Made by a program: the position numbers and the translations under genes. Source: Candidatus Saccharimonadota bacterium (GTDB lineage Bacteria; Patescibacteriota; Saccharimonadia; UBA4664). From it: 64,000 nucleotides of DNA. Below are positions 3,189 through 62,484 of this stretch, piece by piece. Location: contig JACAFG010000005.1 of the NCBI GenBank assembly GCA_019352195.1, forward strand, positions 92,287 to 156,286, in the 5' to 3' direction. A model generated the notes under the pieces. It was not told where the DNA came from and searched no databases. It was given only the letters and a program-made list of their open reading frames with translations. The first letter of the stretch is position 1; each line of letters opens with the position of its first letter.

Positions 3189-4253
3189 ATGGCCCGCGCC
3201 TCTGCAGCCACGGTTGGCACAGTCGTGCCGATCGCCCCTCCCACTGGTACGCCGGCGGGAACGCCGACTGCCACCTACGAACTCCTACCGGTGAGCTTGC
3301 TCGCTGTGATGGCCGAAGAGGCCAACAAGCGTGAAGGTGATCTGGCAGGGCGTCCGGGTCGCGTCGAAACTGCCGTTCGCGGCAAGCGACGCAAGCCACG
3401 CCCGGTGAAAGACGCCCTTCCGGGCCAAATGACCGCGGCAGCTTGGTCTAGCGTCCTGTCGAGCGAGATCAGAAATCGCCGCGGGGACTACACGGTTTCC
3501 GACGCCGAGGCGCTCGAAATGGCCATGGTGGCCGCCCCGTCGATTCTCGGTGTGGCGGGGGACAGATCGGCGCTCGGCCCCACGGGGCCCAATGCGTCGG
3601 ACCGTAGCCCGCGCTTCAAGCAGGCGGTGGAACTCGGCATGGCCACACAGAAGCAACGTAAGAAGCTGCTGAATGGTCTGGAAGCCGACGATCATCCGCC
3701 GAAGTGGAAGTGGCTGTGGACACCGATCATGATGATCGTGTTCGCGGCTTTCCTCTACGCCTGCGCAGTTGCGGCAGGCGCGTCGGAGTTTTGGCGCGAT
3801 GTGATCGCGTTGCCCCTCATCGGAGCTATTGTCTGGTGGTTGGTCAACGTCTACAAGCGCCGCTCTGTCGTCACGCCGGCCGTGCTCTATGCGGCTGCCT
3901 GCGCGTTGGCGATCTTGGTGATCGTGCTGAATGCGATCTTGCATTCCGGGTCTCCAACCACCACCGGACCGTCCGCGCCGGCCGATACCGCCCCCATTTC
4001 GACGGGGGACTACAGCGGCGTCAACGCGGAAGACCTGAACTTGGTTCAGGGGATTCTCGTCCATCTGAGCCAGTGCACGGGGAAGTCCGTCAACCCCAGC
4101 TGCAAGATCTGGCTCCCGAGCGACTCCACGACCGGGGCGCTCGTACTCAAGCCGCTCAAGGGAAGCGATGTCGAAGCCTACTGCACGCGGGTGCAGTCGG
4201 CTAGCAGGTCTACCAACGGCGCGATCACGGTACCCGGTTTCTGCACTCCATAG
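3189..4253 (+). CDS. hypothetical membrane protein (3 predicted TM helices, Cys-containing C-terminal ectodomain)
   Basis: AAGGA RBS. Hydrophobic helices (WKWLWTPIMMIVFAAFLYACAVAAG ...). The antisense 730-aa ORF is a GC artefact. Confidence 0.4.
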   Translation: MARASAATVGTVVPIAPPTGTPAGTPTATYELLPVSLLAVMAEEANKREGDLAGRPGRVETAVRGKRRKPRPVKDALPGQMTAAAWSSVLSSEIRNRRGDYTVSDAEALEMAMVAAPSILGVAGDRSALGPTGPNASDRSPRFKQAVELGMATQKQRKKLLNGLEADDHPPKWKWLWTPIMMIVFAAFLYACAVAAGASEFWRDVIALPLIGAIVWWLVNVYKRRSVVTPAVLYAAACALAILVIVLNAILHSGSPTTTGPSAPADTAPISTGDYSGVNAEDLNLVQGILVHLSQCTGKSVNPSCKIWLPSDSTTGALVLKPLKGSDVEAYCTRVQSASRSTNGAITVPGFCTP

Positions 4254-4277
4254 AGCCCAAACTGTGGTGGGGCCCTC

Positions 4278-5369
4278 TTGCACAACGATGCAGTTTTGGC
4301 CGATCTGGAGAAGAGGCTCGCCGGCATGCCGTCGACGCTCGATTCCGGGACGTCTAAGAGCAAGCTCCCGACGTCCGTTCCGCCCACGCGGGCGAGCGCC
4401 GATAACTCCTTCGGGAAGTGGTTGGTGAGGTTGCTCCTGCTCATGGTCGTCGGCGGCATCGTCGCCCTCTTCATGGGCATGACGCCGCAGCCGCAGACCG
4501 CTGCTCCCACCGCCTCGGCCCCGAGGTCGACCGCCCCGGTCGCCGTCCACCACGGTTCGCTGTTGGCCCCGTTCGGCATCACGTCGGGCATCGTCAACGG
4601 CGTGACCGGGCTGACGCCCAAGGCCACGACCCCGGCGAAGCCGGCGGCCAAGCCGAGGGTGGTGACCAAGGCCAAGATCATCATCAAGCGCGCGGCCCCC
4701 AAGCCGATCGCCAAGGTGGTGATCAAGCCGGTGACCAAGCCCCAGGCGTTGGCACCCGCGGCCCGTCCGCAGAGCAACGCCAACACGGTGACCAGCACCG
4801 ACAACCAGACGGCCACCGGCAACTCGGTGGCGACGGTCGTCGCCCAGCCGGCCCCCAAGATGACGCCGGCCCCCGCGCCCGCGAACCAGATCGTCACGGT
4901 TCGCCAGCCGGACCCGTTCAACAAGGTGGTGACCATCGGTCAGCCGAGTCACAAGTCTGACCCGGCCCCCAAGGCCTCCGATCCGGCCCCCAAGGCGGAT
5001 CCCACCCCCAAGGCCGCTCCGGACCCGGTCGTCGTCGTCAAGATCCCGGCCCCCCAGCCGGCACCGGTCGCCAAGAACCCGGCCCCGCAGCCGGCACCGG
5101 GCCCCAAGCCGGCTCCGGTCGCCAAGAACCCGGCTCCGCAGCCGGCACCGGTCGCCCAGAACCCGGCCCCGCAGCCGGCACCGGCCCCCCAGCCGATCGC
5201 CAAGAACGGCAGCGGGGCGCAGACCAACACGCCGGCCGGCGTGACCGATCAGAACACCAAGAGCGCGGTCACTGGGCAGGCCGGCGTCGGCACCGTCGCC
5301 ACCAATTCCGGTGGTAAGGGCGTCACCGACCCGAACCCGACCAACCAGACCGTGACCTTCGGCGGATAG
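4278..5369 (+). CDS. membrane-anchored proline/alanine/lysine-rich repeat protein
   Basis: Single N-terminal TM helix. Then tandem PAPQPAPVAKNPAPQPAP repeats with an actinobacterial-style proline-rich composition. Confidence 0.4.
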   Translation: MHNDAVLADLEKRLAGMPSTLDSGTSKSKLPTSVPPTRASADNSFGKWLVRLLLLMVVGGIVALFMGMTPQPQTAAPTASAPRSTAPVAVHHGSLLAPFGITSGIVNGVTGLTPKATTPAKPAAKPRVVTKAKIIIKRAAPKPIAKVVIKPVTKPQALAPAARPQSNANTVTSTDNQTATGNSVATVVAQPAPKMTPAPAPANQIVTVRQPDPFNKVVTIGQPSHKSDPAPKASDPAPKADPTPKAAPDPVVVVKIPAPQPAPVAKNPAPQPAPGPKPAPVAKNPAPQPAPVAQNPAPQPAPAPQPIAKNGSGAQTNTPAGVTDQNTKSAVTGQAGVGTVATNSGGKGVTDPNPTNQTVTFGG

Positions 5370-5569
5370 TCGGGTCGATCTACTCAGAAAAACCAACTTC
5401 GGTTGGTGCAGTACCTTTTTGCAGTACGTAGTACCGCATTTCCCGCAGTAACCAGCAATACACGCGTGAACGTGCATTACCTTCTTGTTACTACGAGCGC
5501 ACCTCGATTTGTCGCCCCTTGCGATAAATCACCCCGTTATACCCAGAAGTAAACGGTCTGTTACATGAG

Positions 5570-15984: not shown

Positions 15985-16771
15985 TCGGCAAATACGCACA
16001 AATGGTCGGCCGAGCTATGGCCGGCCCGTGCCACCACGCCCGCGCGGCCGAACGCGGCCGTCGTTTAAGCTCGGGCTTATCCCGCGGCGCCTCCTATTGT
16101 TGGCAATTGCGCTGGTGGTCGTGATTTTGGGGCTCAGGCAAGTGTTTAGCATTCGGACTATTACGGTGGTGCCGGCTAACCCTACCACGGCTGCTGAAGC
16201 TAAGCAGATCTTGGGCGCCAGCTGGTCGCTAGGCAATGCGCTGACGTTTAATGGCTCGTCGTTTAGTTCTAAGCTGACGGCCATGGACGCAACGATTAAG
16301 AGTGTCTCCACGACAAGATTATTGCCGTCGGGTCTGCGCGTGGTTGTGACATTCAAGCAGCCCAGCCTGGGCTGGCTGAGTGGCAACGAGGGCCACTTAC
16401 TCGACGTTGATGGTACGGCTATTGGCGTGCTGCCAGCCGGTAATAAATTACCGGTAGTAACGGACGACTCCAACTTGCCGGTCACGGCTGGTCAGGCGGT
16501 GGTAGCGCCACGCTTCGTTAGCTTTGTCACTGGCGTATCCAAACAATTACCGAACACCGGCTTAACTGCGACGAAGTACGAAATTAAGGACACAACCTTT
16601 GATTTGTACGTTACAACCAATAAAGGCTATCAGCTTATTTTGGACACTAGCAGGCCAGTGGGGGATGAGATGGGGGATCTGACCGCTGTGCTTAACAACT
16701 TGAAGCAAACAGGTAAAACCCCAGCGCAATACATTGATCTACGCATTGCCGGACGCGCGTATTATAAGTAA
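15977..16771 (+). CDS. FtsQ/DivIB-like cell division protein (start uncertain; GTG at 15977 overlaps the murG stop)
   Basis: Arg-rich cytoplasmic tail and a single TM helix, then a periplasmic domain. Last gene of the cluster. The annotated longer ORF starts at 15908. Confidence 0.45.
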   Translation: MADRQIRTNGRPSYGRPVPPRPRGRTRPSFKLGLIPRRLLLLAIALVVVILGLRQVFSIRTITVVPANPTTAAEAKQILGASWSLGNALTFNGSSFSSKLTAMDATIKSVSTTRLLPSGLRVVVTFKQPSLGWLSGNEGHLLDVDGTAIGVLPAGNKLPVVTDDSNLPVTAGQAVVAPRFVSFVTGVSKQLPNTGLTATKYEIKDTTFDLYVTTNKGYQLILDTSRPVGDEMGDLTAVLNNLKQTGKTPAQYIDLRIAGRAYYK

Positions 16772-17136
16772 GGCTCAAGCTGAAATTGGAGCTCCGACTT
16801 CCCTGTTTCTAGTTCGGTTTTTGTCTGGCCCATATCCGAACAAAATTATAGAGTGCACCACGGGGAAAATTCCCCGAGTAAATAAGAGCTAGTAGGGGGC
16901 AAAAGTGCGAAAAATGAGAAAATTCAAATTCAGCTTAAAAACCGGCTAGAACGGGCTTTTAGCTCATATGTGGCTTTGGCGTCGCAAAATATACATTGTG
17001 CGACATTGAGTCTATTGATGAGAAGATGACTACTACTACCCCTTTCGTATTCCATAATATCCTTATGCCAAGCCAATAAGCGCATTCTGAGTTATTTTGT
17101 GCAGTGATCTTGCTTCTCGTCGGTCTGTCTTTTGTC

Positions 17137-17189
17137 TTAATAGCCTAAGTCCCCCGCTCTAAATTAGAGCGGGGGACTTAGGCTATTAA
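17137..17189. terminator. perfect ~26-bp-arm palindrome (CTTAATAGCCTAAGTCCCCCGCTCTAA-a-TTAGAGCGGGGGACTTAGGCTATTAAG) between convergent operons
   Basis: Seen directly in the sequence. No flanking T-runs, so it could also be a protein-binding site. Confidence 0.5.
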
Positions 17190-17301
17190 GTTGGCGTGGT
17201 TTGGGGCGAGAGTACTCGGTAACTATGGGACGCGCTTCTACGCGAGCTGGGCGGGCGGTATAAGCCCAAAGTGTAAGACAGGGTTACACGGGGCGCTGGG
17301 G

Positions 17302-20205
17302 TTAGTTCTTCTGGTCAGAGGTAGGGGACTCGGCTGAAGGAGCAGCAACGCTAGCTGCTACCGGCTGCTGTTCCCCACTCTTTTGTTGCATGGCGGCCGC
17401 GATGGCTTCGCGGATGGCGTTGTCGTTCACACGAGGCGCAGGTGGTGCAATTACCCGCTGACTCCCCTGCCCTGCTGGCATGGCGGCAGGTGGGTTCACT
17501 GCTGGCGGTCGATACGCGTAACGCTTTGGTGCTGGCTCCTGGTGGCTGGTGGCGCGCTCCCGGCTGTCCGGTCGGCGCTGCTCCCCTGCTGTCTCGTTGG
17601 TTGGAGCAGGCGGCAAATTGGGGTTTTTGAGCGCAGCCAAGAATTCGCTCTTGGGTGTGTTCGGTGTTTGATCGGCAGAGGTCATATTCGAGGTAATTGG
17701 GTTGGTAGATACGACGTTGTCGACGGCGCGATCGCCCACGGAAGGGCCATCCTCGGTGCGGCTACGGATATCGGCTTCGACGCTAGCACGGTCGGAGGCA
17801 TAAACTGAGCGTGAATTAAGAACGATTTTCTCAAACAAATCGTTCTCGGGGTCGGGACGTCGTAAGGTTGTTGCCGAAAATGGAATAGTTTTCTCGCCGT
17901 TTACGATCATGGAGATGAAAATATTTTGGTTATTGAGGCGGGTAATATCGGTGGCTTCAAAGGTTGGCTCAAAATATTTACCCAAGATAACAGAGTCGCC
18001 TGGGCCAACGCGGAAGCTCACGATGGTACCAACGTTACCAAACACGGCGTCACGCACGGTTTCGGGCATTTGGGCGACGTATTGGTTAGCGACAGTGAGG
18101 TTCAGGCCGTACTTACGAGCTTCGGACAAGATTACAGCAAAACTATCGGTAGCAAAGTTTTGGAATTCGTCGACGTAGAGATAAAAGGGACGGCGATCCT
18201 CGAGGGCCATATCGGCTCGTCCCATGGCCGCAAGTTGGATCTTCGTAACCATAAGCGCGCCTAAAATGGCGGCGTTGTCTTCACCGACCTGACCGCGTGA
18301 GAGGTTAACGATGAGGATCTTGCCTTCATCCATAATTTTACGAAGGTTAAACGCTGACTTCTTTTGGCCGACGATATTACGGATGAGTGGGTTGGCCACA
18401 AAGGCACCCACCTTGTTGAGCACCGGAGCGATGGCTTCGGAGGCAAACTTCTCGTTCCAACTGGCAAATTCTGTTACCCAGAAGTTGCGCACGACCGGAT
18501 CGTCAATTTCTTTGATGACGCGTTTGCGGAAGTCTTTTTCGGTTAGCATGCGCGTGATGTCGAGCATGGTAGCGTCCGGATAGTCCAGCAGGGCTAAAAT
18601 TGTGTAGCGCAAAATGTACTCCAGGCGCGGACCCCAGGAGTTCTCAAACATGCGCTTAAGCACGCCGACGAGCTCGGAACTAATGTGGTTTTTGAGGTTG
18701 ATATCAATTACTTCCATCGGGTTGAAGGCCATTGGATTATCACGGTCGGTGGCGTCAAAATATACCACGTCTTTAATGCGGTCTTCGGGAATATACTTCA
18801 TGACGTCGGTAGCGTAATCACCGTGGGGGTCAATGATAGCAAAGCCTTGGTTTTGATATATGTCCGACAAAGTGAGCAGCTGCAGGAGCATACTCTTACC
18901 GGCGCCGGTTTGGCCAATGATGTACATGTGGCGGCCGCGGTCGCGGCGCTTGATCCCAAACTTGAGCTGGCGACCGCGGAAGTTGGTAAGACCAAACAAG
19001 CTCATGTCGCCCGGTTCGGTAATACCCTCAACCGGCAAACTGGCCGGGGGCTCGGAGGTCTTAGAGGTTGTCCATACCATTGATGGTGTTTCGACTGACT
19101 TGTGAGGCAAATGGTAGAGCGAGGCGAGCTCTTCAATATTGAGGACCTGGCCAGACTCGAGGAATAACCGAGAACGGTACTCGTCGATAAACTCAATTGA
19201 ATTATAGGTTTTACCCTGTCCAAAACCGTTCAAGTTGGTGGTGTTGAATTGCTTAAAGCCGCCAATAAGGGCCTGGAGACGCGACTTAGCCATGGTTTCG
19301 CTGGGACCAAGGTAGGCAATGCGAATTTTCACTTCATAACCGAGTTTGGTAATTTTTTCTTCGACAGCTTTGATCATGGTCTGATCGCCGGTGGAAACTT
19401 CGACTTTTTTGACCTCACCCGGTTTAGCAGTTGCATTTGGCGGCGTTGAGAGGGCCTTCGCGAAGTTGGAGACAATATAAATTGGCAGGCCGAGCAGTAG
19501 TTCCCGGAGTTCCCCCGCTAAACCGCGATCGCTTTTGCCTGCCTTGATGTTATCGATAAATTTCTTACCGCGGTCTTGCCAACTATCGTCAACGGGACGA
19601 GCCAAAATTTGGATCCAGGCTTCCTCGCCTACTCCTTCAAGCTTAGCGAGTACGCCCGTGATGCCGGCCAGCGGGTCGACTTCGAATGAGGCGAAAGTTT
19701 TTACTGGCAGTACGTCGGGCTTGGTGAGTACGAGCTCGGTACCATAAATAGCCCGCCCGCCGGGATCGGTTTTAGTGTAATCTTCGGGATTTTCGGCAAT
19801 CTGGACCGTAGGATACTGCGCGTAAACTTGGCTTTCAACAAAGTCTTTGAGGTGTTTGGGGCACCAAATATAAAACTGGATTGAGTTCTCGCGAGCAACA
19901 ATCTCAAATGAGATGTGCTCTTGGAGTGAGCCTTCACGCAGCAATTCATCTTTGCCGCGCAAAATGCCGTGCAGGGAGGCAAACATTTGTTCGGCCGAGA
20001 GCTCTTTTTTCTCGTTATCTTTGGGCACGTCGATACGCAGCAAAATCGTTTCAATTTCGTTGACCCATTTGATGCGGCGGCGGTTTTGATACGTAAGGTA
20101 CGCGATGACCGCAACCACTACGATCCAAAGTTGGAATTTAAATAGGAGCAGGCCAATAATATCTAAAATGGCAAATAGAGGCGATAAGACACTACCAAAT
20201 GGCAA
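17302..20205 (-). CDS. VirD4/TraG/FtsK-HerA-superfamily P-loop ATPase (type IV secretion coupling-protein-like) with an N-terminal membrane anchor and a Pro/Ala-rich C-terminal tail
   Basis: N-terminal TM helices. Walker A GQTGAGKS. Walker-B-like YLYVDEFQNF. Low-complexity C-terminus. Confidence 0.55.
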   Translation of the reverse strand: MPFGSVLSPLFAILDIIGLLLFKFQLWIVVVAVIAYLTYQNRRRIKWVNEIETILLRIDVPKDNEKKELSAEQMFASLHGILRGKDELLREGSLQEHISFEIVARENSIQFYIWCPKHLKDFVESQVYAQYPTVQIAENPEDYTKTDPGGRAIYGTELVLTKPDVLPVKTFASFEVDPLAGITGVLAKLEGVGEEAWIQILARPVDDSWQDRGKKFIDNIKAGKSDRGLAGELRELLLGLPIYIVSNFAKALSTPPNATAKPGEVKKVEVSTGDQTMIKAVEEKITKLGYEVKIRIAYLGPSETMAKSRLQALIGGFKQFNTTNLNGFGQGKTYNSIEFIDEYRSRLFLESGQVLNIEELASLYHLPHKSVETPSMVWTTSKTSEPPASLPVEGITEPGDMSLFGLTNFRGRQLKFGIKRRDRGRHMYIIGQTGAGKSMLLQLLTLSDIYQNQGFAIIDPHGDYATDVMKYIPEDRIKDVVYFDATDRDNPMAFNPMEVIDINLKNHISSELVGVLKRMFENSWGPRLEYILRYTILALLDYPDATMLDITRMLTEKDFRKRVIKEIDDPVVRNFWVTEFASWNEKFASEAIAPVLNKVGAFVANPLIRNIVGQKKSAFNLRKIMDEGKILIVNLSRGQVGEDNAAILGALMVTKIQLAAMGRADMALEDRRPFYLYVDEFQNFATDSFAVILSEARKYGLNLTVANQYVAQMPETVRDAVFGNVGTIVSFRVGPGDSVILGKYFEPTFEATDITRLNNQNIFISMIVNGEKTIPFSATTLRRPDPENDLFEKIVLNSRSVYASDRASVEADIRSRTEDGPSVGDRAVDNVVSTNPITSNMTSADQTPNTPKSEFLAALKNPNLPPAPTNETAGEQRRPDSRERATSHQEPAPKRYAYRPPAVNPPAAMPAGQGSQRVIAPPAPRVNDNAIREAIAAAMQQKSGEQQPVAASVAAPSAESPTSDQKN

Positions 20206-20208
20206 TTA

Positions 20209-21249
20209 CTATTTCTCCTTAAGGTCGTAGGTAGCTTTCGCAGTCCGGACGAATTGATCTTTTTCCTGAAGATTAAGAATAATGGTGGTGGTTTTGACTT
20301 GGCGCTTCATAAGGACACGGCGGACAATTTCATCCTTGTGCAAGGGCGCAGATTCTTCGCGTAAAACTGAGGCAATAATCTCGGCAACCGTACCAGGCGT
20401 GTAGCCCCACTCGCTGAGCGCGTAAATACCGCGGCCAATAAGAATGAAGCGGCCGTCTTTGATGAGTTCATTGTGAACTGCTTGCACGGTAACGTTACGC
20501 TTGTTGGTACCCAGGCCACGAACGTGGTGGGCGATGTCCGAGAAGTGCAGCGGGCGGCCATGGCGAGCAAGGACGAGATAGGTTTTGTCGCGAATGCTTT
20601 TCGGGTTAACCTCGGGCCAAGCAACCAGTCCCCACTTGCCGTCAAAATAAGCGAGTTGCTTTGATACGCGCATGAGCTGCTCGAGGGTTTCGGGTTCAAG
20701 CTCGGAAGCTAGCTTGGAGCGCAGCTTTACGAGCGTGGTGGGCTTGCCGTAGGCGGTGACCGCGGCTACTACTTCTTCGATGAGCTGGACAATTTGGGAG
20801 CGACCAAAGATTGGGAGCAATCCAACTGCCGCACGAAGGTGATCGTCGTCGTCGATAAGGTCGACACCATGGGACAGTAAGCTCAGGAAGATAATGTAGG
20901 GGGCGTCGGTTTCGGGCGCAGCGAGTATGGCAGTAATATCGCTAATTAGAGCGACGCCACCAAAGTCGCGTACGACGGTGGTAATAACTTCATTGGCTCG
21001 TGATAGCTCGGCAAAGTCAAGGCTGCGGAGTTTGGTTACTGCCGCCTTCTCGATTTGGCGAACGCGTTCACGGGTAATGTTAAAATCGTTGCCGATTTTC
21101 TCGAGAGTTTGGCGTTTGGCCATACCAAAGCCAAACCGGCCAGCAATTATCTGGCGGTCGCGTTCACGGCGAAGCTGCCCCAAGATAGTTTTGGTGGCGT
21201 CGCGGTAGTCGTACTTGGTGCTCGTTGCGGTCGCAGTTTGGTTTGTCAT
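20209..21249 (-). CDS. DNA-binding protein with an N-terminal sigma-70 region 4 HTH and a C-terminal HARE-HTH-like domain
   Basis: IAGRFGFGMAKRQTLEKIGNDFNITRERVRQIEKAAVTKLR is a sigma region 4 signature. HFSDIAHHVRGLG ... DGRFILIGRGIYALSEWGY resembles the HARE-HTH of the RNAP delta subunit. Lies 4 bp upstream of the ATPase gene. Confidence 0.5.
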   Translation of the reverse strand: MTNQTATATSTKYDYRDATKTILGQLRRERDRQIIAGRFGFGMAKRQTLEKIGNDFNITRERVRQIEKAAVTKLRSLDFAELSRANEVITTVVRDFGGVALISDITAILAAPETDAPYIIFLSLLSHGVDLIDDDDHLRAAVGLLPIFGRSQIVQLIEEVVAAVTAYGKPTTLVKLRSKLASELEPETLEQLMRVSKQLAYFDGKWGLVAWPEVNPKSIRDKTYLVLARHGRPLHFSDIAHHVRGLGTNKRNVTVQAVHNELIKDGRFILIGRGIYALSEWGYTPGTVAEIIASVLREESAPLHKDEIVRRVLMKRQVKTTTIILNLQEKDQFVRTAKATYDLKEK

Positions 21250-21256
21250 TGCTTCA

Positions 21257-21285
21257 ATTATAAAATATCGCTAAATTTGTGTCAA
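21257..21285 (-). promoter_or_regulatory. consensus sigma70 promoter on the minus strand (TTGACA-17 nt-TATAAT) whose -10 ends 7 nt before the ATG at 21249 (leaderless transcript predicted)
   Basis: The reverse complement of 21257-21285 reads TTGACACAAATTTAGCGATATTTTATAAT. Confidence 0.55.
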
Positions 21286-21394
21286 CAATCGAGGCAAAGC
21301 GAAGTTATTAGCGCTCGATCTCATACGTAAAGATAATTTTATAACATGTTTACGCATTATGCAATAGCTTTTATATCGGGTATTAGAAAATGGG

Positions 21395-23842: not shown

Positions 23843-23896
23843 GCACCCTCCTATCTCAACTTATTATAGCGAGCGGGCGTATAAACGCGAAGCGAC

Positions 23897-23924
23897 CCCG
23901 GTTTCTTGCAAGAAACCGGGGTCG
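23897..23924. terminator. perfect 28-bp palindrome ACCCCGGTTTCTTGCAAGAAACCGGGGT at the boundary between GC-rich island 2 and recO
   Basis: Seen directly. A minus-strand TATAAT -10 for recO lies immediately downstream. Confidence 0.5.
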
Positions 23925-30389: not shown

Positions 30390-30649
30390 GCGAACAAGTT
30401 AGCAGCATCCAGACCATCATCTGGCAGCGTTAAAGCGGCAGGCTTGGCCGGGGCAGAGAATTTTACTTTAATTTTTTCGACCCGGTTTTCAACGCTCGTT
30501 AGGTGTTCCTTGAGTGCTGCGGCTAGTTCCATTCCCCGTTCAAATTTGACGAGGCCTTGATCGAGGTCGACGTCGGTAGATTCAAACCAGCCAGTAATGG
30601 CCTCAAGCTCGGTCATCGCCTCGTCAAATTGAAATTTCTTGTCAGTCAT
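30386..30649 (-). CDS. xseB: exodeoxyribonuclease VII small subunit
   Basis: About 87 aa helical protein. Overlaps the start of the MTase and the end of xseA (operon). Confidence 0.7.
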   Translation of the reverse strand: MTDKKFQFDEAMTELEAITGWFESTDVDLDQGLVKFERGMELAAALKEHLTSVENRVEKIKVKFSAPAKPAALTLPDDGLDAANLFA

Positions 30650-31884
30650 GGCTTGCTAATTACCTCCGTATCGGTGCTGCCTTTGGCCAATTGTACCACG
30701 AGCCGGTCGCCGTTTTTGAGCGTAGCGGCGTCGCGTACGATCGTACTATCGTGACGTACGATCGCGTAGCCACGCTGCAGGGTAGCTTCCGGATTGAAGC
30801 CTTGCAATACGCGCCGTAGGCTCGTGAGCTGCGCTTGTTTTTGCGGCAGTAACTGACGCTCGAAGGTGCTAAGTTTGTACTCCATAGCTTCGGTGCGGGC
30901 ACGAAACTGTTTGGGTTGAGCACTTAGGCGATCAAGCGCGCGCCACAAACTGGTGACCTTGGCATCAAGCTGCTGACGTGGGTAGCGCAGATAGGCCTCA
31001 AGCCGGGTTACGGCGCGGTCAATGCCTAGTTTATGGCGGTCGAGGGCGGCGTCAAGGGCGCTGGATGTACGTCGACTAAGCTCATGAACGCGCGCGGTTA
31101 GCTCGACCCGGTCCGGGACCACCAGGCGCGCGGCGTCGGTTGGGGTCGCGGCGCGTACATCAGCCGCGTAATCGGATAAACTGAAATCGATTTCGTGTCC
31201 GACGCCCACAATAATGGGGGCGCGGCTGGCAGCAACCGCACGCGCTACGGGTTCGGTCGAAAAGGCGGCCAAATCTTCAAGCGAGCCGCCGCCACGAATA
31301 AGGACGACGACGTCGACTGGAGTGCTTGAATTAAAGTATTCAAGCGCTGCTACCACCTGATCGGGCGCGCTCGGTCCTTGCACGGTGACGTCGGCAACGC
31401 GAACATCGAGACCACCCCAGCGGGCGCCTAAAATTTTGATGAAGTCCGCATAGGCGGCACTAGTGGCGGAGGTAATAAGGCCGATGGTTCGTGGATACAT
31501 CGGCAGGGGGCGTTTGCGCGCCGGGTCAAACAGCCCTTCAGCTTCGAGTTTAGCACGCAGCAGCTCCATGGCGCGACGCAACGCGCCCTCCCCTGCTATT
31601 TCGACGGCACGGACAGTGAACGAAAACTTGGAATATTTGGTGATTTTCGGTGAGCCGGTCACCCGCACTTTCATACCGTCTTCGAGCGGCAGTTTGAGCT
31701 GGTGGACTGTCATAAAACAGTTGATAACGTTGGCATCGTCTTTGAGATCAAAAAAGACCCACTTGCCCTGATTGATTTTAAAACTCGAAACTTCGCCCTC
31801 GATGATCACTTGCGGGTAGGCAAAGCTAAGCGTCTCATTGATGATGCCGACAAAGTCGGTAACTGAAATTACTTGAGGCTGCAT
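30646..31884 (-). CDS. xseA: exodeoxyribonuclease VII large subunit
   Basis: N-terminal OB fold then the catalytic core pattern (GVGHEIDFSLSDYAADVRAATPTDAA). Confidence 0.85.
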   Translation of the reverse strand: MQPQVISVTDFVGIINETLSFAYPQVIIEGEVSSFKINQGKWVFFDLKDDANVINCFMTVHQLKLPLEDGMKVRVTGSPKITKYSKFSFTVRAVEIAGEGALRRAMELLRAKLEAEGLFDPARKRPLPMYPRTIGLITSATSAAYADFIKILGARWGGLDVRVADVTVQGPSAPDQVVAALEYFNSSTPVDVVVLIRGGGSLEDLAAFSTEPVARAVAASRAPIIVGVGHEIDFSLSDYAADVRAATPTDAARLVVPDRVELTARVHELSRRTSSALDAALDRHKLGIDRAVTRLEAYLRYPRQQLDAKVTSLWRALDRLSAQPKQFRARTEAMEYKLSTFERQLLPQKQAQLTSLRRVLQGFNPEATLQRGYAIVRHDSTIVRDAATLKNGDRLVVQLAKGSTDTEVISKP

Positions 31885-36052: not shown

Positions 36053-36448
36053 TTAGTTGGCTTTAGTTGAGACTTGCGGCTTGAGGTGGCGGTGAACATG
36101 GGTAAGGACCTCGGGAATAACCCCGGGCGAGTTGATAAACACATCGGTTAGGCCGAGTTGTTTACTACGGGTGCGAAGGTCGGCAGTTATGAGTGGAGTC
36201 AGCAGAATTATTTTGGAGTGAGCGGTCTCAGGGGTGAGTTGGATAATCTCAATGAGATCATGACCGGGCGTTGGTAAATCGGCGTCCATAATAATGAGTT
36301 CAGGCTGGTGATTGAGACTATGTTGCAGCAGGTCTTGGCCGTCACGGCACAAAATAACCTGGTACGGGTACTCGCTGAGCCGGTTCGAGTAGGCGGCCGC
36401 AAGGCGCGTGTTGGCCATCGCAATAATGACGCGGGGAGATTGTCTCAT
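36053..36448 (-). CDS. receiver-like (pseudo-receiver?) domain protein translationally coupled to pyrG
   Basis: Rossmann-like receiver topology with IIMDADLP retained. The N-terminal acidic pair is replaced by AMAN. Overlaps the pyrG stop by 4 nt. Confidence 0.45.
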   Translation of the reverse strand: MRQSPRVIIAMANTRLAAAYSNRLSEYPYQVILCRDGQDLLQHSLNHQPELIIMDADLPTPGHDLIEIIQLTPETAHSKIILLTPLITADLRTRSKQLGLTDVFINSPGVIPEVLTHVHRHLKPQVSTKAN

Positions 36449-38085
36449 GCTCGTACCTGTGCGGCCGCTTGTTTGAGACTGGCCTGCATAAAACCATTAA
36501 ACAGCGGATGCGCGCGATACGGGCGGCTTTTAAATTCAGGATGGAACTGGCTGGCGACAAAATAGGGATGATCACGTAGCTCAACGACTTCAACGAGCTT
36601 TCCGTCCGGCGACAGGCCAACCAAATTAAGCCCGGCGGCAGTTAGCTGATCGCGGTAGTCATTATTTACTTCCCAACGGTGCCGGTGCCGCTCGGTAATT
36701 TTGGTATTACCGTAGAGCATGGCCGACTTTGAACGTCGCTCGAGGACACAGGGATAATCGCCCAGACGCATGGTGCCACCTTTGGTCTCGACGCCACGCT
36801 GATCGGCCATAAGGTCGATAACCGGGTATGGCGTGTTGGGGTCTACCTCGGTGGTATGGGCACCCGTCAGGCCGCTATTGCGAGCCACTGCAATAACGGC
36901 TGTCTGGAGACCCAAACACAGCCCGAGGTACGGAATACCGTGCTTGATGGCGTATTGGCCCGCAATAATCTTGCCTTCGACGCCGCGGCTGCCAAATCCG
37001 CCGGGCACTACCAAACCGTCGTAACCTGCTAGTAAGTCGGCCGGTTCGGCGCTTTCCAAAGCTTCGGCGTCAATCCAGCTAATCTGCGGCTGGATCGAAT
37101 TGGCCCAGCCGGCGGCTTTGATGGCCTCAAAGACGCTCATATAGGTATCTTCGTTGTCCATATACTTGGCTACTACACCAATGCGCAGAACGCGGTGGTC
37201 GGGATGTTTAATGAGCGATACCAATTTTTCCCAGGCGTCTAGTTTTGCTTTGCGGTCTTTGACACCGAGGTGGCGACAAATATAGTTGGGGATGCCCGAT
37301 TGCTCAAGCAGAAGCGGCACTTCATAAACCGTTTTGGCCGTTGGCATAGGAATAATTGCGTCTTCATCAACGTCACCAAATAAGGCAATTTTGGTTAATA
37401 CGCCTTTGGTGAGCGGCTTTTCGGCGCGCGCCACAACCACGTCGGCTTGAATACCGGCTTCACGTAAATCCCGAATGGCGTTTTGCGCTGGCTTGGTTTT
37501 AAGTTCGTGGGACGCTTCTAGGTACGGGACATACACCAGATGCATTGATAGCGTACTGGCGTGGCCGACGCGGCGGCGAAACTGGCGGATGGCTTCTAAC
37601 GTGGCTTGGGACTCGTAGTCCCCCACTGTGCCGCCAACCTCAACGATGTGAAAATCAAAGCCACGGCCAGCGGTAAGGATTTGATCCTGAATTTCGTTGG
37701 TCACATGGGGAATAATTTGTACGGTTTTACCTAAATATTTGCCGGCGCGCTCATCGGCAATAATTTTAGCGTAAATCCGGCCGTTCATGACGGAGCTGCT
37801 TTGGGTGAGCTCATCATCGAGGAACCGCTCGTAGTGGCCAAGATCCAAATCGGTCTCGGCGCCGTCTTTGGTTACAAAGCATTCACCGTGCTCGGCTGGG
37901 TTGAGCGTACCGGCGTCGGTATTAAAGTAGGGATCGAGTTTTTGGAGGTTAACTTTGAATCCGCGAGCTTTGAGGGTGGTTCCGAGCGAAGCGGCGGTGA
38001 TGCCTTTACCGAGTCCCGAAAGCACTCCGCCGGTCACAAAGATGTACTTCGTGGTAACTTCCGCCACGCGTTCCCCTCTCAACAA
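36445..38085 (-). CDS. pyrG: CTP synthase
   Basis: MTTKYIFVTGGVLSGLGKGITAASLG N-terminus. Glutamine amidotransferase C-terminal domain. Confidence 0.92.
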   Translation of the reverse strand: MLRGERVAEVTTKYIFVTGGVLSGLGKGITAASLGTTLKARGFKVNLQKLDPYFNTDAGTLNPAEHGECFVTKDGAETDLDLGHYERFLDDELTQSSSVMNGRIYAKIIADERAGKYLGKTVQIIPHVTNEIQDQILTAGRGFDFHIVEVGGTVGDYESQATLEAIRQFRRRVGHASTLSMHLVYVPYLEASHELKTKPAQNAIRDLREAGIQADVVVARAEKPLTKGVLTKIALFGDVDEDAIIPMPTAKTVYEVPLLLEQSGIPNYICRHLGVKDRKAKLDAWEKLVSLIKHPDHRVLRIGVVAKYMDNEDTYMSVFEAIKAAGWANSIQPQISWIDAEALESAEPADLLAGYDGLVVPGGFGSRGVEGKIIAGQYAIKHGIPYLGLCLGLQTAVIAVARNSGLTGAHTTEVDPNTPYPVIDLMADQRGVETKGGTMRLGDYPCVLERRSKSAMLYGNTKITERHRHRWEVNNDYRDQLTAAGLNLVGLSPDGKLVEVVELRDHPYFVASQFHPEFKSRPYRAHPLFNGFMQASLKQAAAQVRA

Positions 38086-47174: not shown

Positions 47175-48272
47175 CTAATCGTCGCTACCGGAGCCTATTT
47201 GGCCGTTGAGATAAGCTTCAATAAACAAATCGAGATTGCCGTCTAAGACGCCGGCGGCATCATTCGTTTCGGCCCCGGTGCGGACATCTTTGACCTTAGT
47301 GTAGGGATGGAGCACATAATTGCGGATTTGTTGGCCCCACTCGGCGGCTTTATCGGCACCGCGCAATTGGCCAAGTTCGGCGGCCTGTTCCGCTTCGAGG
47401 CGCGCCGCTAAACGGGCTTTCAGCACGGCCATGGCTTTGTCTTTGTTTTGTAGCTGTGAGCGCTCGTTTTGAATCGCCACCACCGTATTGGTCGGTATGT
47501 GGGTGATGCGGACAGCTGAATCAGTCGTGTTAACGCTTTGGCCGCCTTTGCCGCTCGAGCGATACACATCGATCCGCAAGTCTTTGGGGTCGAGTTCGAT
47601 ATCGGCGGTGCTGCGGTCGAGTTGAGGTAGTACCTCAACCAGCGCAAATGAAGTTTGGCGTAAATCGGCCGAATTAAATGGGCTTTGGCGAACTAGACGA
47701 TGAACGCCGGCTTCGCCTTTGAGTTTGCCAAAGGCAAACGGCCCGGAGATTTCAATAGTGGCGCTCTTAATTCCCGCTTCCTCACCAGGCGAGGTTGATA
47801 GAATTTCGGCGCTAAAATTCTGCGAGGTCGCCCATCGCACGTACATGCGTTGGAGCATTTCGGTCCAGTCTTGCGCGTCGGTACCGCCGGTACCGGCATG
47901 GAGCTCGATAATGGCGCCGGTCCGATCATGCGGGCCTGATAGCTTGAGCTCAAATTCGCGTGCTTCATAGTCGGTTTTGAGGCGCGAGTAGGTAGCTTCG
48001 GCGGTTTCGGCGTAGCCCGGGATATCGGTGACGCCAAATAATTCATCACTGACTTGGCTTTCGAGCGAGCGCCAACTTTCGACATGTTTCGTGAGTTCGG
48101 CGAGGCGCTGCGAAGTTTTAGCCGCGGCTTGAGGATCATTCCAAAAATCGGGCGCTTGGGTGGCCGCGCTGAGCTTGGCGATCTCGGTAGCGTCGGCAGG
48201 TATACCAAGTTTAGCGATGGCGGATTGAATTCGCTCCAACAGATCAGTGTAGCGGTGAATAAGGTCTTGCAT
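47175..48272 (-). CDS. prfB: peptide chain release factor 2 (uninterrupted ORF; no programmed +1 frameshift site)
   Basis: SPF tripeptide motif and GGQ (SSGKGGQSVNTTDSAVRITH). 365 aa in one frame. Confidence 0.88.
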   Translation of the reverse strand: MQDLIHRYTDLLERIQSAIAKLGIPADATEIAKLSAATQAPDFWNDPQAAAKTSQRLAELTKHVESWRSLESQVSDELFGVTDIPGYAETAEATYSRLKTDYEAREFELKLSGPHDRTGAIIELHAGTGGTDAQDWTEMLQRMYVRWATSQNFSAEILSTSPGEEAGIKSATIEISGPFAFGKLKGEAGVHRLVRQSPFNSADLRQTSFALVEVLPQLDRSTADIELDPKDLRIDVYRSSGKGGQSVNTTDSAVRITHIPTNTVVAIQNERSQLQNKDKAMAVLKARLAARLEAEQAAELGQLRGADKAAEWGQQIRNYVLHPYTKVKDVRTGAETNDAAGVLDGNLDLFIEAYLNGQIGSGSDD

Positions 48273-60540: not shown

Positions 60541-61188
60541 CTAGGGGCGGTCGATGAGCTTTATGCCAGCCTCGGCCGCCAGCAGTGGTGCAAGCTGGAT
60601 GAGCTGGTTATCAGTCACGCTGACGCCGCGCAGGCCGTCGAGACCCCGGATAGTGCTAAGGTTGCAACTATTGAAGCTAGTTTTATAGAGGTGAGCGCGA
60701 TCTAAAGCAGTGCGGTCGAGCAGACAGTCTTCAAAGCGGACATCGTTTAAATTCGCGCCCTGAAAGCTCGCTTCTGATAAATCGCAGTTGGTAAAACTCA
60801 CGCGCGACAAACTGGCGGCGCTAAAGTTGGCCATATTGAGTTTAAGGTCGGTAAAACTAGTGTCCTTGATGGTACTGCTCGACATAATGACGGCCGAAGC
60901 GAGGCCGCCAGCAAAGCTGACTCTGATAAAGGATGAGCTATCAAAACTGGTGCCAAATAGATGACAACGCGTAAACTGCGTGTCCGAGATATCAGCCGAT
61001 TTGATGACGCAGGCAGTTAATTCGCATTCAATGATGCGGCTCAGGGCAATACTAGCTCGCTCAAGTGAGAGGTTGGCGAGGGTCCCCGTTTGGATAGACG
61101 CTCCCTCCACTGGCTGATGGAGCTGGTTTAGTGGCGTCGGTTCAAGCTGGGTGGGCAGTTTCGGGGCCTGAACGATTGCATGCATCAT
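60541..61188 (-). CDS. pentapeptide-repeat protein (Qnr/MfpA-like)
   Basis: Continuous A(D/N)LXX pentapeptide repeats over about 180 aa (for example ANLSLERASIALSRIIECELTACVIKSADISDTQFTRCHLFGTSFDSSSF ...). Length about 215 aa, typical of DNA-mimic PRPs. Confidence 0.65.
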   Translation of the reverse strand: MMHAIVQAPKLPTQLEPTPLNQLHQPVEGASIQTGTLANLSLERASIALSRIIECELTACVIKSADISDTQFTRCHLFGTSFDSSSFIRVSFAGGLASAVIMSSSTIKDTSFTDLKLNMANFSAASLSRVSFTNCDLSEASFQGANLNDVRFEDCLLDRTALDRAHLYKTSFNSCNLSTIRGLDGLRGVSVTDNQLIQLAPLLAAEAGIKLIDRP

Positions 61189-61521: not shown

Positions 61522-62484
61522 CTAAACGGCGGCTGGAAGCTGGGCCTGGGCGAGAATCGTGCGAACTTCGGCAGGCGTTGTTGCGTCCATGAGTTGGGCG
61601 CGGAGCTCGGCTGCGTTGGGCCAACCAGCAACGTAGATTTTGAAGAACTTTTTTAACACCTGAAAGTGCTTCGTACTACCCCATTGTTCGTAAAGCTCAA
61701 CATGCCGCAGTAACACGGCAATCCGCTCTTCGGGCGTACGCTCGATGTGTTCGCTCGAAAAAACGTCGATGTCATGAAAAATGCCGCGCCCAATCATGAC
61801 GGCGTCGACGCCGGTTTGAGTAGCTAATTGTTCACCCTGGGCGCGGCTTAAGACATCACCGTTGCCAATAATGACGGTATGCGGCGCGAGCTGATCGCGC
61901 AATTTGACGACTTTAGAGATTTCGTCCCAATGGGCTGGTACTTTGCTCATTTCGCGCACGGTCCGGCCGTGGATGGTCAGAGCCGCCAGATTTTGTTGCA
62001 GGAGCCAGCCGGTCCATTCCTCGGTGATAATAGCGTTTAAGCCGACGCGGGTTTTGACGCTGACCGGTAAACCGGGCGCGCCGCGTTTAACGGCGGCGAT
62101 AATTTCGCCGGCTAGCTCGTAGTTGCCAATAAGGCCGCCGCAGCAGCCTCTGGCCACAATCCCCCGTTCAGGACAACCCATATTGATATCGATGCCGGCA
62201 AAGTTACCCGAGGCGGCAATTTCGCGCGCGGTGAGCTCGTACTTTTCGGGATCATTGCCCCAAATTTGGGCAATGAGGTTAGCTGACTCGCCCGGAAACA
62301 CACGCAAACGTTCTAACGTGCGTTCACGCCCCGCCGACTGAAGGCCGTCAATACTTACAAATTCGGTCATGAATACGTCGGGCGGCGCGACTTCTGCGAC
62401 TAACTGACGAAAGACCACGTCAGTAACGTCGTCCATGGGAGCCAAGACAAAAAAAGGCCGCTTAAGCTGTTGCCAAAAGTTCAT
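61522..62484 (-). CDS. dusB: tRNA-dihydrouridine synthase
   Basis: TIM-barrel Dus motifs (LAPMDDVTD, GIDINMGCP, catalytic Cys in RGCCGG). Confidence 0.85.
   Translation of the reverse strand: MNFWQQLKRPFFVLAPMDDVTDVVFRQLVAEVAPPDVFMTEFVSIDGLQSAGRERTLERLRVFPGESANLIAQIWGNDPEKYELTAREIAASGNFAGIDINMGCPERGIVARGCCGGLIGNYELAGEIIAAVKRGAPGLPVSVKTRVGLNAIITEEWTGWLLQQNLAALTIHGRTVREMSKVPAHWDEISKVVKLRDQLAPHTVIIGNGDVLSRAQGEQLATQTGVDAVMIGRGIFHDIDVFSSEHIERTPEERIAVLLRHVELYEQWGSTKHFQVLKKFFKIYVAGWPNAAELRAQLMDATTPAEVRTILAQAQLPAAV

Follow-up and report, generated by a model that had tools for sequence, protein, structure and literature searches.

A sigma region 4/HARE-HTH protein encoded beside a membrane-anchored, coupling-protein-type ATPase in a Candidatus Saccharimonadota bacterium

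Organisation of the locus

The subject of this study is a two-gene operon in an uncultivated Candidatus Saccharimonadota bacterium, located within a stretch of 64,000 nucleotides (nt) from contig JACAFG010000005.1 of assembly GCA_019352195.1 (positions 92,287 to 156,286 of the forward strand), which we call the window and whose coordinates we use throughout. Both genes are on the minus strand and closely packed, with gene 1 (20209-21249) ahead of gene 2 (17302-20205). Gene 1 encodes a protein that combines sigma-70 region 4 with winged helices, among them a HARE helix-turn-helix (HTH) domain, and is referred to here as the sigma4/HARE protein; gene 2 encodes an ATPase with a predicted membrane anchor, a DUF8128 domain and a motor resembling those of type IV coupling proteins. 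A preliminary description of this DNA had proposed that the pair forms a DNA-handling module with its own DNA-binding partner, transcribed from a consensus promoter that leaves essentially no leader. Our analysis suggests that the sigma4/HARE protein, DUF8128 and the ATPase work together as a three-part module, and we set out below the evidence for this partnership and the explanations that compete with it. The features of the operon are as follows.

20209-21249, minus strand: gene 1, 346 amino acids (aa), sigma-70 region 4 and tandem winged helices including HARE-HTH; orthologue of SEML1_0294
20995-21222, minus strand: sigma region 4 of gene 1, aa 10-85, by alignment to RpoD region 4
20407-20592, minus strand: HARE-HTH winged helix of gene 1, aa 220-281, within the nearly invariant last 150 aa
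17302-20205, minus strand: gene 2, 967 aa, membrane-anchored DUF8128 and coupling-protein-type ATPase; orthologue of SEML1_0293
20215-20220, minus strand: putative Shine-Dalgarno (SD) sequence of gene 2, AAGGAG, overlapping the last codons of gene 1, 9 nt ahead of the TTG start
20056-20205, minus strand: predicted membrane anchor of gene 2, a hydrophobic helical hairpin, aa 1-50, from Kyte-Doolittle values and predicted helices
19006-20052, minus strand: DUF8128 (PF26449) alpha/beta domain, aa ~52-400, with many invariant residues
17761-19005, minus strand: P-loop motor with an all-alpha insertion, aa ~401-815; TrwB_AAD_bind and DUF87
17305-17760, minus strand: predicted disordered, Ala/Pro-rich tail of gene 2, aa 816-967 (~150 aa), predicted local distance difference test score (pLDDT) <50
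21257-21285, minus strand: promoter P1, TTGACA at 21285-21280, 17-nt spacer, TATAAT at 21262-21257; predicted leader of 0-1 nt
21335-21364, minus strand: second conserved intergenic element and candidate promoter P2, TTGCAT at 21364-21359, 15 nt, extended -10-like TGT-TATAAA at 21346-21338

Gene 1 carries an intact promoter-reading helix

Translation of gene 1 is predicted to begin at the ATG at 21249; no rival in-frame start lies ahead of the conserved Y13 and no SD is present, so on the sequence this is the sole plausible start. Residues 10-85 align to regions 4.1-4.2 of primary sigma factors (RpoD region 4, E ~1e-9 to 1e-12), and both domains assigned in the preliminary description exceed their Pfam cut-offs, namely Sigma70_r4 at aa 29-75 (E 1.7e-12) and HARE-HTH at aa 220-281 (E 1.1e-10, 42.2 bits against a cut-off of 25.9). 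The recognition helix of region 4.2, ITRERVRQIEKAA, matches its counterpart in Escherichia coli sigma70, TRERIRQIEAKA (ITRERVRQIE against TRERIRQIE), and across the 41 homologues aligned the stretch T59-K68 is invariant. The predicted structure is confident over residues 11-210, and in Foldseek searches region 4 superposes on known structures at a root-mean-square deviation of 1-2 Å with 35-44% identity. The top matches are region 4/beta-flap-tip chimeras, aligned over 111 columns in a part of the model with pLDDT ~90, and the model offers a weak hint that a helix at residues 80-95, following region 4, may itself occupy the flap-binding groove. Beyond region 4 the protein is a string of winged helices (three domains), of which the last 150 residues, including HARE-HTH, are almost invariant.

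Region 4 is the only sigma region that matches gene 1; sigma region 2 is absent and all NCBIfam sigma models score far under their cut-offs. Because region 2 is missing, the protein, judged by its sequence, is not a sigma factor. Nor is it a delta subunit of RNA polymerase by the same measure, since its match to the delta N-domain model TIGR04567 is weak (30.1 bits, cut-off 42), its HARE-HTH domain is internal and its C-terminal third is basic (23 K+R against 14 D+E). A split sigma factor, in which gene 1 would supply region 4 to an RpoD lacking one, is ruled out by the RpoD of Southlakia epibionticum, which has regions 1.2, 2, 3 and 4.

Gene 2 joins a DUF8128 domain to a coupling-type motor

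Gene 2 starts with TTG, 3 nt past the stop codon of gene 1, and the position of its SD within gene 1 suggests that its translation is coupled to that of the upstream gene. The membrane-anchored, 967-aa P-loop ATPase with a Pro/Ala-rich tail, as first described, holds up well. Kyte-Doolittle values exceed 1.6 for windows starting at aa 1-21, the first 40 residues are hydrophobic, and helices are predicted at 4-22 and 26-50. The domain that follows matches PF26449, a match that precomputed annotation records on the exact gene 2 protein and on all 120 listed homologues. When gene 2 was compared by sequence with the Protein Data Bank (PDB), the DUF8128 part returned no match and the P-loop alone was recognised. 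Walker A (GQTGAGKS, aa 431, 18892-18915) and Walker B (FYLYVDE, aa 674, 18166-18186) are separated by a helical insert at aa 508-609 in the predicted structure.

The preliminary description had placed the ATPase in a broad coupling-protein/FtsK-HerA group, of which coupling proteins are the closest to the motor. The Pfam models TrwB_AAD_bind (29.8 bits, cut-off 20.5) and DUF87 (38.6 bits, cut-off 23.2) both exceed their thresholds; TrwB is matched by sequence in the PDB at E 2e-6 and by Foldseek with TMt 0.44-0.48. The best NCBIfam match of the motor is the VirD4-like conju_CD1115 (E 4e-13, 48.9 bits against a cut-off of 250), and TraD models reach 28-39 bits against cut-offs of 366-648. TrwK/VirB4 structures give the lowest Foldseek E-values, over 800-940 columns, yet their TM-scores are only 0.2-0.27, and NCBIfam VirB4/TrbE matches (E of at least 4e-5) are confined to the P-loop. 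The FtsK and HerA parts of that assignment were not supported by family models. Gene 2 has no FtsK match in Pfam (PF01580, PF17854, gamma domain), and it scores 16 bits against a cut-off of 970 with the NCBIfam helicase_HerA model, though DUF87 is present; no nuclease neighbour was seen among the relatives' and distant loci examined. A replacement for FtsK beside the dcw (division and cell wall) cluster was also considered and ruled out, since a complete, essential FtsK is present in S. epibionticum.

The tails of the ATPase family are hypervariable and of low complexity apart from a few short motifs. In gene 2 one such motif, PNTPKSEFLAALKNP, lies at aa 848-862 (17620-17664); L856, L859, N861 and P862 are invariant and the family form is PN-x-EFL-x-ALKNP. 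A helix near the C-terminus, NDNAIREAIAAAM, is predicted at aa 928-940. Two alternative motifs close the tails, one an amphipathic helix, ND-x-A[IV]R-x-AI, and the other a terminal EPGQ-x-[IV]S[LF]R, and ATPase homologues at the distant loci described below carry similar tail-end motifs. By analogy with TraD, the conserved tail motifs suggest docking sites for a partner.

The two genes are linked across deep lineages

Each protein family has more than 6,500 homologues, with 60-88% identity among the 120 closest, and gene 1 is ~70% identical across Saccharibacteria, with long invariant stretches. We surveyed one Saccharibacterial genome per species, which gave 80 loci with the ATPase, of which 77 had enough upstream sequence to be informative. 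A same-strand gene 1 lies upstream of the ATPase at 64 of these 77, usually with a gap of 12-130 nt.

An exhaustive search with gene 1 returned 563 cluster representatives with a full-length match at E ≤ 1e-30, and we examined the genomic contexts of seven distant homologues with 34-35% identity. DUF8128 and a TrwB-type ATPase are encoded directly downstream in six of them (L085, L086, L087, L088, L089 and L092); the seventh context is ambiguous. The flanking genes of the six loci are unrelated, and L085 belongs to Moraniibacteriota. Four of the six loci encode DUF8128 and the ATPase separately; the break corresponds to aa ~395-400 of the window's protein, and the split DUF8128 retains its hydrophobic N-terminus. 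Thus, from sequence comparison, the operon in the window is the Saccharibacterial copy of a gene set whose linkage recurs in distant relatives, one or more of which belong to another lineage of the Patescibacteria, or Candidate Phyla Radiation (CPR). Because the adjacency spans deep lineages, the neighbours have changed, and DUF8128 and the ATPase occur both fused and split, these observations together are the strongest evidence we have, and suggest that the sigma4/HARE protein, DUF8128 and the ATPase work together.

Relatives of the ATPase also include a DUF8128-ATPase subfamily that lacks the anchor (L072-L074 and L077-L081), in which the open reading frame (ORF) starts at ~5950 (4606 in L074, 2678 in L081). 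Where examined, members of this subfamily often have tilS and ftsH on their upstream side and a murJ-like gene on the other, with no sigma4/HARE gene. At L089, two ATPase paralogues flank the sigma4/HARE gene.

In the window (16771-17302) and in L002, L090, L091 and L092, the dcw cluster (mraZ...murG-ftsQ) has the module at its 3' end, in convergent orientation to ftsQ; in L085 and L086 the module lies a few kb from murG, murC or murB. From gene order, this link to cell-wall genes may be recurrent and loose, or may merely reflect residual synteny. The preliminary description had suggested looking for VirB4/VirB6-like partners in the neighbourhoods of relatives; in the relatives examined, no gene for a type IV secretion system (T4SS) channel (VirB4, VirB6) or for a relaxase lies within 10 kb either side of the ATPase.

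Distant homologues of gene 2 in phages

Two phage proteins, gp156 of Bacillus phage G and gp27.4 of SPO1 (PHROG 5156), are homologous to gene 2 over its full length, DUF8128 and motor included (phrog_5156, E 1e-85; tblastn, E 3e-48 and 1e-18; Foldseek, E 3e-36). They differ from the Saccharibacterial protein in having just 22-24% identity to it and no sigma4/HARE gene alongside, and SPO1 gp27.4, unlike gene 2, is without an N-terminal transmembrane anchor. In phage G, gp156 follows the TrbL/VirB6-like gp153 and the TraG/VirB4-like gp155 (L084, 1905-7469). In SPO1, the neighbourhood includes an Alp7A-like actin, and the gp27.4 homologue directly precedes the Replic_Relax protein gp27.3 (L083, 4776-8313). 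These conjugation-like neighbourhoods favour a coupling-type DNA-handling role for the gene 2 family.

A consensus promoter with a clade-specific leaderless geometry

The promoter noted in the preliminary description is a 12/12 match to TTGACA-17-TATAAT and the single such match on either strand of the window, where we estimate the chance expectation at ~0.004 for 54% GC. Only 7 nt (TGAAGCA) separate its -10 hexamer from the ATG at 21249, and the proposed leaderless geometry without an SD is borne out in the layout of the sequence. The promoter is a family trait: at 59 of 67 related loci, 10 or more of the 12 positions match in the 130 nt ahead of gene 1, with all 12 matching at about two dozen loci, and the spacer is almost always 17 nt long. 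The usual distance from the -10 to the start of gene 1 in relatives is 45-65 nt, often with an SD-like GAGGCAGAGAGGA ahead of the ATG, which rules out a leaderless start as a feature of the whole family. A spacing of 7-8 nt is confined to the window and its three nearest relatives (71-88% protein identity), so the leaderless layout is, from this distribution, a derived feature of the window's clade. In the four genomes of the clade, the promoter hexamers are invariant and the 7-8 nt ahead of the start are variable; such conservation of spacing with varying bases supports the reality of the leaderless geometry.

The idea that a leaderless start is peculiar to gene 1 is weakened by the rest of the window, where a good -10 hexamer precedes the start by 6-8 nt in about 6 of the 43 genes; a histogram of TAnnnT offsets upstream of the 43 ORFs peaks at 6 nt. 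Genes without an SD and with a -10 (TATACT, TATAAT or TACAAT) ending 6-8 nt before the start lie at 30646-31884, 36445-38085, 47175-48272, 60541-61188 and 61522-62484, all on the minus strand. Leaderless mRNAs may, from these positions, be common in this Saccharibacterium; a literature search for leaderless mRNAs in the CPR found no publication on the subject.

The candidate promoter P2 lies 75 nt upstream of P1. Its element TGTTATAnnATT is invariant in the window, L090, L091 and L003, and its -35 is poor. Comparison of the leader and terminator regions with known RNA families in Rfam gave only sub-threshold miRNA hairpin artefacts.

Phenotypes and catalogues of the orthologues

Transposon sequencing (Tn-seq) of S. 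epibionticum provides phenotypes for the orthologues of both genes, SEML1_0294 (annotated RpoS) and SEML1_0293, each flagged as a core, Patescibacteria-enriched family (Wang et al. 2023, PMC10633639). SEML1_0294 is essential at every time point. SEML1_0293 is called non-essential, and its normalised reads drop about four-fold over two passages (5,817 to 1,372) with its neighbours flat (PMC10633639). The same study reports a second protein resembling type IV coupling proteins (T4CPs), SEML1_0142, which is essential and whose P-loop domain also starts near residue 380 in the published domain parse, together with a separate, complete RpoD and a complete, essential FtsK with all domains (PMC10633639). 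In the annotation table of this organism, HARE appears solely in the row of SEML1_0294, and RpoD is the one full sigma factor.

Patescibacterial genomes are rich in genes of the gene 2 kind. Quinonero-Coronel et al. 2025 (PMC12102498) catalogued 5,713 VirD4-like homologues in 2,918 Patescibacterial genomes (~two per genome), of which 148 are near virB4 and 5,565 are far away, and these authors proposed that the orphan VirD4-like genes may have been exapted for other functions. Published analyses also report that the Patescibacterial T4SS cluster is essential for epibiotic growth. Neither PMC12102498 nor PMC10633639 mentions DUF8128, its fission or fusion, or a linked sigma4/HARE gene; the words "sigma" and "HTH" do not occur at all in the former, and the tags SEML1_0293 and SEML1_0294 are absent from the main text of the latter. 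Literature searches for DUF8128, for DUF87 with Patescibacteria and for HARE-HTH with sigma found no account of the gene pair. The locus is an ordinary orthologue of widespread, already catalogued CPR genes, of which the three-part organisation appears to be undescribed so far.

Palindromes and other features of the window

Beyond the stop codon of gene 2 lies one further feature.

17136-17190, no strand: perfect palindrome with 27-nt arms (17136-17162 and 17164-17190) and a 1-nt centre

It lies 112 nt past the stop, between gene 2 and the convergent ftsQ-like gene, and as RNA would form a 26-bp stem (z = -8.9). The palindrome that the preliminary description placed at the operon end (26 bp, 17137-17189) is real, with arms of 27 nt, but does not belong to the conserved module. 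It is missing in 75 relatives, the two closest included, and is, on this comparison, specific to this genome. A conserved operon terminator is ruled out, as the element occurs in this genome alone and is without a U-tract on the operon strand; it may, from its predicted fold, act as a hairpin terminator or stabiliser. A second perfect palindrome, with 16-nt arms and no spacer, lies at 23893-23924 (CGACCCCGGTTTCTTG/CAAGAAACCGGGGTCG), just upstream of the recO start. Elsewhere in the window, a 730-aa ORF without a Pfam match (3285-5477, minus strand) overlaps long ORFs on the plus strand (3189-4253 and 4278-5369). No paralogue of gene 1 or gene 2 was found in the window.

Discussion

The explanation that we favour, tentatively and largely by analogy with known coupling proteins, is that gene 2 encodes a membrane-anchored translocase of the coupling-protein type and that the sigma4/HARE protein is its DNA-recognition partner with a further essential role. 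The module would comprise three parts, namely the DNA-binding protein with its sigma region 4, winged helices and HARE domain, the anchor-bearing DUF8128, and a TrwB/VirD4-type ATPase, the last two being fused in the window. The leader would have been lost in the window's clade, so that transcription from P1 would begin at the ATG or 1 nt before it; gene 1 would then be translated from a leaderless mRNA and gene 2 by coupling. The ATPase would form a membrane-bound ring translocase acting on DNA or nucleoprotein, and the sigma4/HARE protein would serve in recognising and loading DNA as TraM or TrwA do for TraD or TrwB. The 4.2 recognition helix is unchanged, and the sigma4/HARE protein probably uses it to read -35-like TTGACA DNA; its docking site may be the short tail motifs of the ATPase or DUF8128. 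The channel would be a T4SS encoded elsewhere in Patescibacterial genomes. Of the two orthologues only that of gene 1 is essential, so the sigma4/HARE protein must also perform some other essential function, which might be to serve SEML1_0142 or to act in transcription. The idea of a DNA-handling module with a dedicated DNA-binding partner, as in the preliminary description, gains support from the linkage in Saccharibacteria and at distant loci, but the sigma4/HARE protein cannot be a dedicated regulator or recruiter only.

Several observations weigh against this explanation. A pure pair of adaptor and motor would not predict that SEML1_0294 is essential and SEML1_0293 dispensable in co-culture. 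The region 4 and delta-like HARE-HTH modules of gene 1 are known RNA-polymerase-binding modules, which a role in transcription would fit equally well. At 13 of the informative loci the ATPase occurs without gene 1, mostly in the subfamily that lacks the transmembrane anchor. Structure searches leave TrwB, VirB4 and HerA unseparated, with TM-scores of 0.2-0.5 from a model of mean pLDDT 64, and gene 2 falls far below the curated NCBIfam cut-offs for TraD and VirD4. The absence of other T4SS components noted in the preliminary description is confirmed in that no T4SS domain occurs among the ten large ORFs of the window that were scanned, and published analyses report most Patescibacterial T4SS clusters as lacking a relaxase. 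As to the leaderless start, the putative P2 could yield a leadered transcript, with a leader of ~80 nt and no SD.

The most serious competing explanation, rather unlikely in our judgement, is that gene 1 encodes mainly a general, essential transcription or nucleoid factor that binds RNA polymerase or -35-like DNA and merely shares a strong promoter with the ATPase, without any joint work. The Tn-seq phenotypes, essential for SEML1_0294 and not for SEML1_0293, sit well with such a factor, as do the match of region 4 to primary sigma factors with the recognition helix intact, the weak match to the delta N-domain, and the standing of SEML1_0294 as apparently the sole HARE protein of an organism whose one full sigma factor is RpoD. 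The extreme conservation of the terminal domains of gene 1 is likewise housekeeping-like, and the conserved consensus promoter suggests high expression. Sharing a promoter alone, however, would not be expected to produce an adjacency that outlasts wholly changed flanks and the fission of DUF8128 from the ATPase, and the protein lacks both sigma region 2 and the acidic tail of delta; the helix at residues 80-95, if it fills the flap-binding groove as the model weakly hints, would also count against binding to RNA polymerase in this manner. Still less probable, to our minds, is that the module acts at the envelope, without a T4SS, on DNA that is incoming or the cell's own, for instance as an uptake motor in transformation or as a division-site pump tied to the dcw cluster. 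The convergence with ftsQ at the dcw end and the mur genes within a few kb at L085 and L086 lend this idea some weight, and among the named com components (ComEC, DprA, ComFC) none is a ComFA-type motor, com genes being dispensable as SEML1_0293 is. Yet S. epibionticum has a genuine, essential FtsK, L087-L089 show no proximity to dcw, and the essentiality of gene 1 would be left unexplained.

We give slightly less credence again to the notion that the ATPase is a coupling protein for protein substrates of the essential T4SS and that the sigma4/HARE protein is its effector cargo, bound for the promoters or RNA polymerase of the host. Such a cargo would agree with a T4SS that is essential for epibiotic growth and has no relaxase, with an essentiality of gene 1 known only as growth on the host, and with the docking-type motifs of the ATPase tail, and a region 4 domain could plausibly engage the transcription apparatus of a different bacterium. 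Effectors, however, usually evolve fast, and gene 1 is ~70% identical with long invariant stretches; the adjoining ATPase is dispensable, no secretion signal or variable host-specific region was identified in gene 1, and the same architecture is kept in lineages with probably very different hosts. Least credible of all is an anti-phage or DNA-surveillance pair, in which a HerA/Dnd-like ATPase would act with a HARE-HTH protein that senses foreign or modified DNA. HARE-HTH domains occur often in the setting of restriction and modification, PADLOC returns matches to mad8 (E 1e-16), HerA models and DndH, and region 4 of the defence sigma factor MzaA is matched by gene 1. These matches are nevertheless limited to the generic P-loop or to region 4, and the pair, ~70% identical and fixed in position, behaves as a core family inherited vertically rather than as a patchy island gene. 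Moreover, gene 1 is essential, and a nuclease or methylase partner is absent from every locus examined.

Returning to the partnership of the sigma4/HARE protein with a coupling-type translocase, it is tempting to speculate on a broader form of it, which we regard as improbable but worth stating. Members of the CPR may handle DNA without a relaxase, in that the essential sigma4/HARE protein would pick DNA through TTGACA-like motifs and load two paralogous DUF8128-anchored motors per genome, which would feed the essential, relaxase-less T4SS or would by themselves export or import DNA. With two paralogous motors in each genome, the adaptor would be essential while one motor is not.

The Patescibacteria account for a large share of bacterial diversity and are host-dependent, and their T4SS is essential yet has neither a recognised relaxase nor a recognised coupling protein, so that the transported substrate is an open question. 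The locus described here offers a concrete candidate, in which an orphan coupling-type motor with an unusual anchor domain lies beside an essential DNA-binding protein that retains the helix with which the housekeeping sigma factor reads promoters. The core families of both genes are enriched in the CPR and poorly annotated, and because Tn-seq phenotypes exist in the genetically tractable S. epibionticum, the partnership, the DNA target and the essentiality can all be tested. Should gene 1 prove instead to encode a general transcription factor, it would represent an essential, lineage-specific RNA-polymerase or nucleoid factor in organisms with a single sigma factor.

Comparison with known systems

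With primary sigma factors (RpoD/SigA), gene 1 shares region 4 and its intact -35 recognition helix; unlike them, it is without regions 1.2, 2 and 3, and three winged-helix domains follow region 4 instead. With the delta subunit of RNA polymerase (RpoE) of Firmicutes, it shares HARE-HTH and the hairpin GR-x-[FIL]...G-x-[YW]-x-L-x-x-W, but the domain is internal in gene 1 and N-terminal in delta, and gene 1 has no acidic disordered tail.

Gene 2 resembles type IV coupling proteins (TrwB of R388, VirD4, TraD, the CD1115 family) in its N-terminal anchor, its RecA-like P-loop with Walker A and B, and the all-alpha insertion between the Walker motifs that TrwB_AAD_bind recognises, and, as in TraD, a long C-terminal tail carries short conserved motifs. 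Canonical VirD4/TraG proteins have no counterpart of the ~350 aa of DUF8128 that separate anchor and motor in gene 2. The accessory protein of the known coupling proteins is of the ribbon-helix-helix kind, whereas the protein linked to gene 2 is the sigma4/HARE protein. Gene 2 differs from them further in having no neighbouring T4SS or relaxase gene and in that its orthologue is dispensable although the T4SS is essential. Its closest fit is with the orphan VirD4-like T4CP homologues of Patescibacteria, of which it is one, being the orthologue of SEML1_0293 and likewise distant from virB4.

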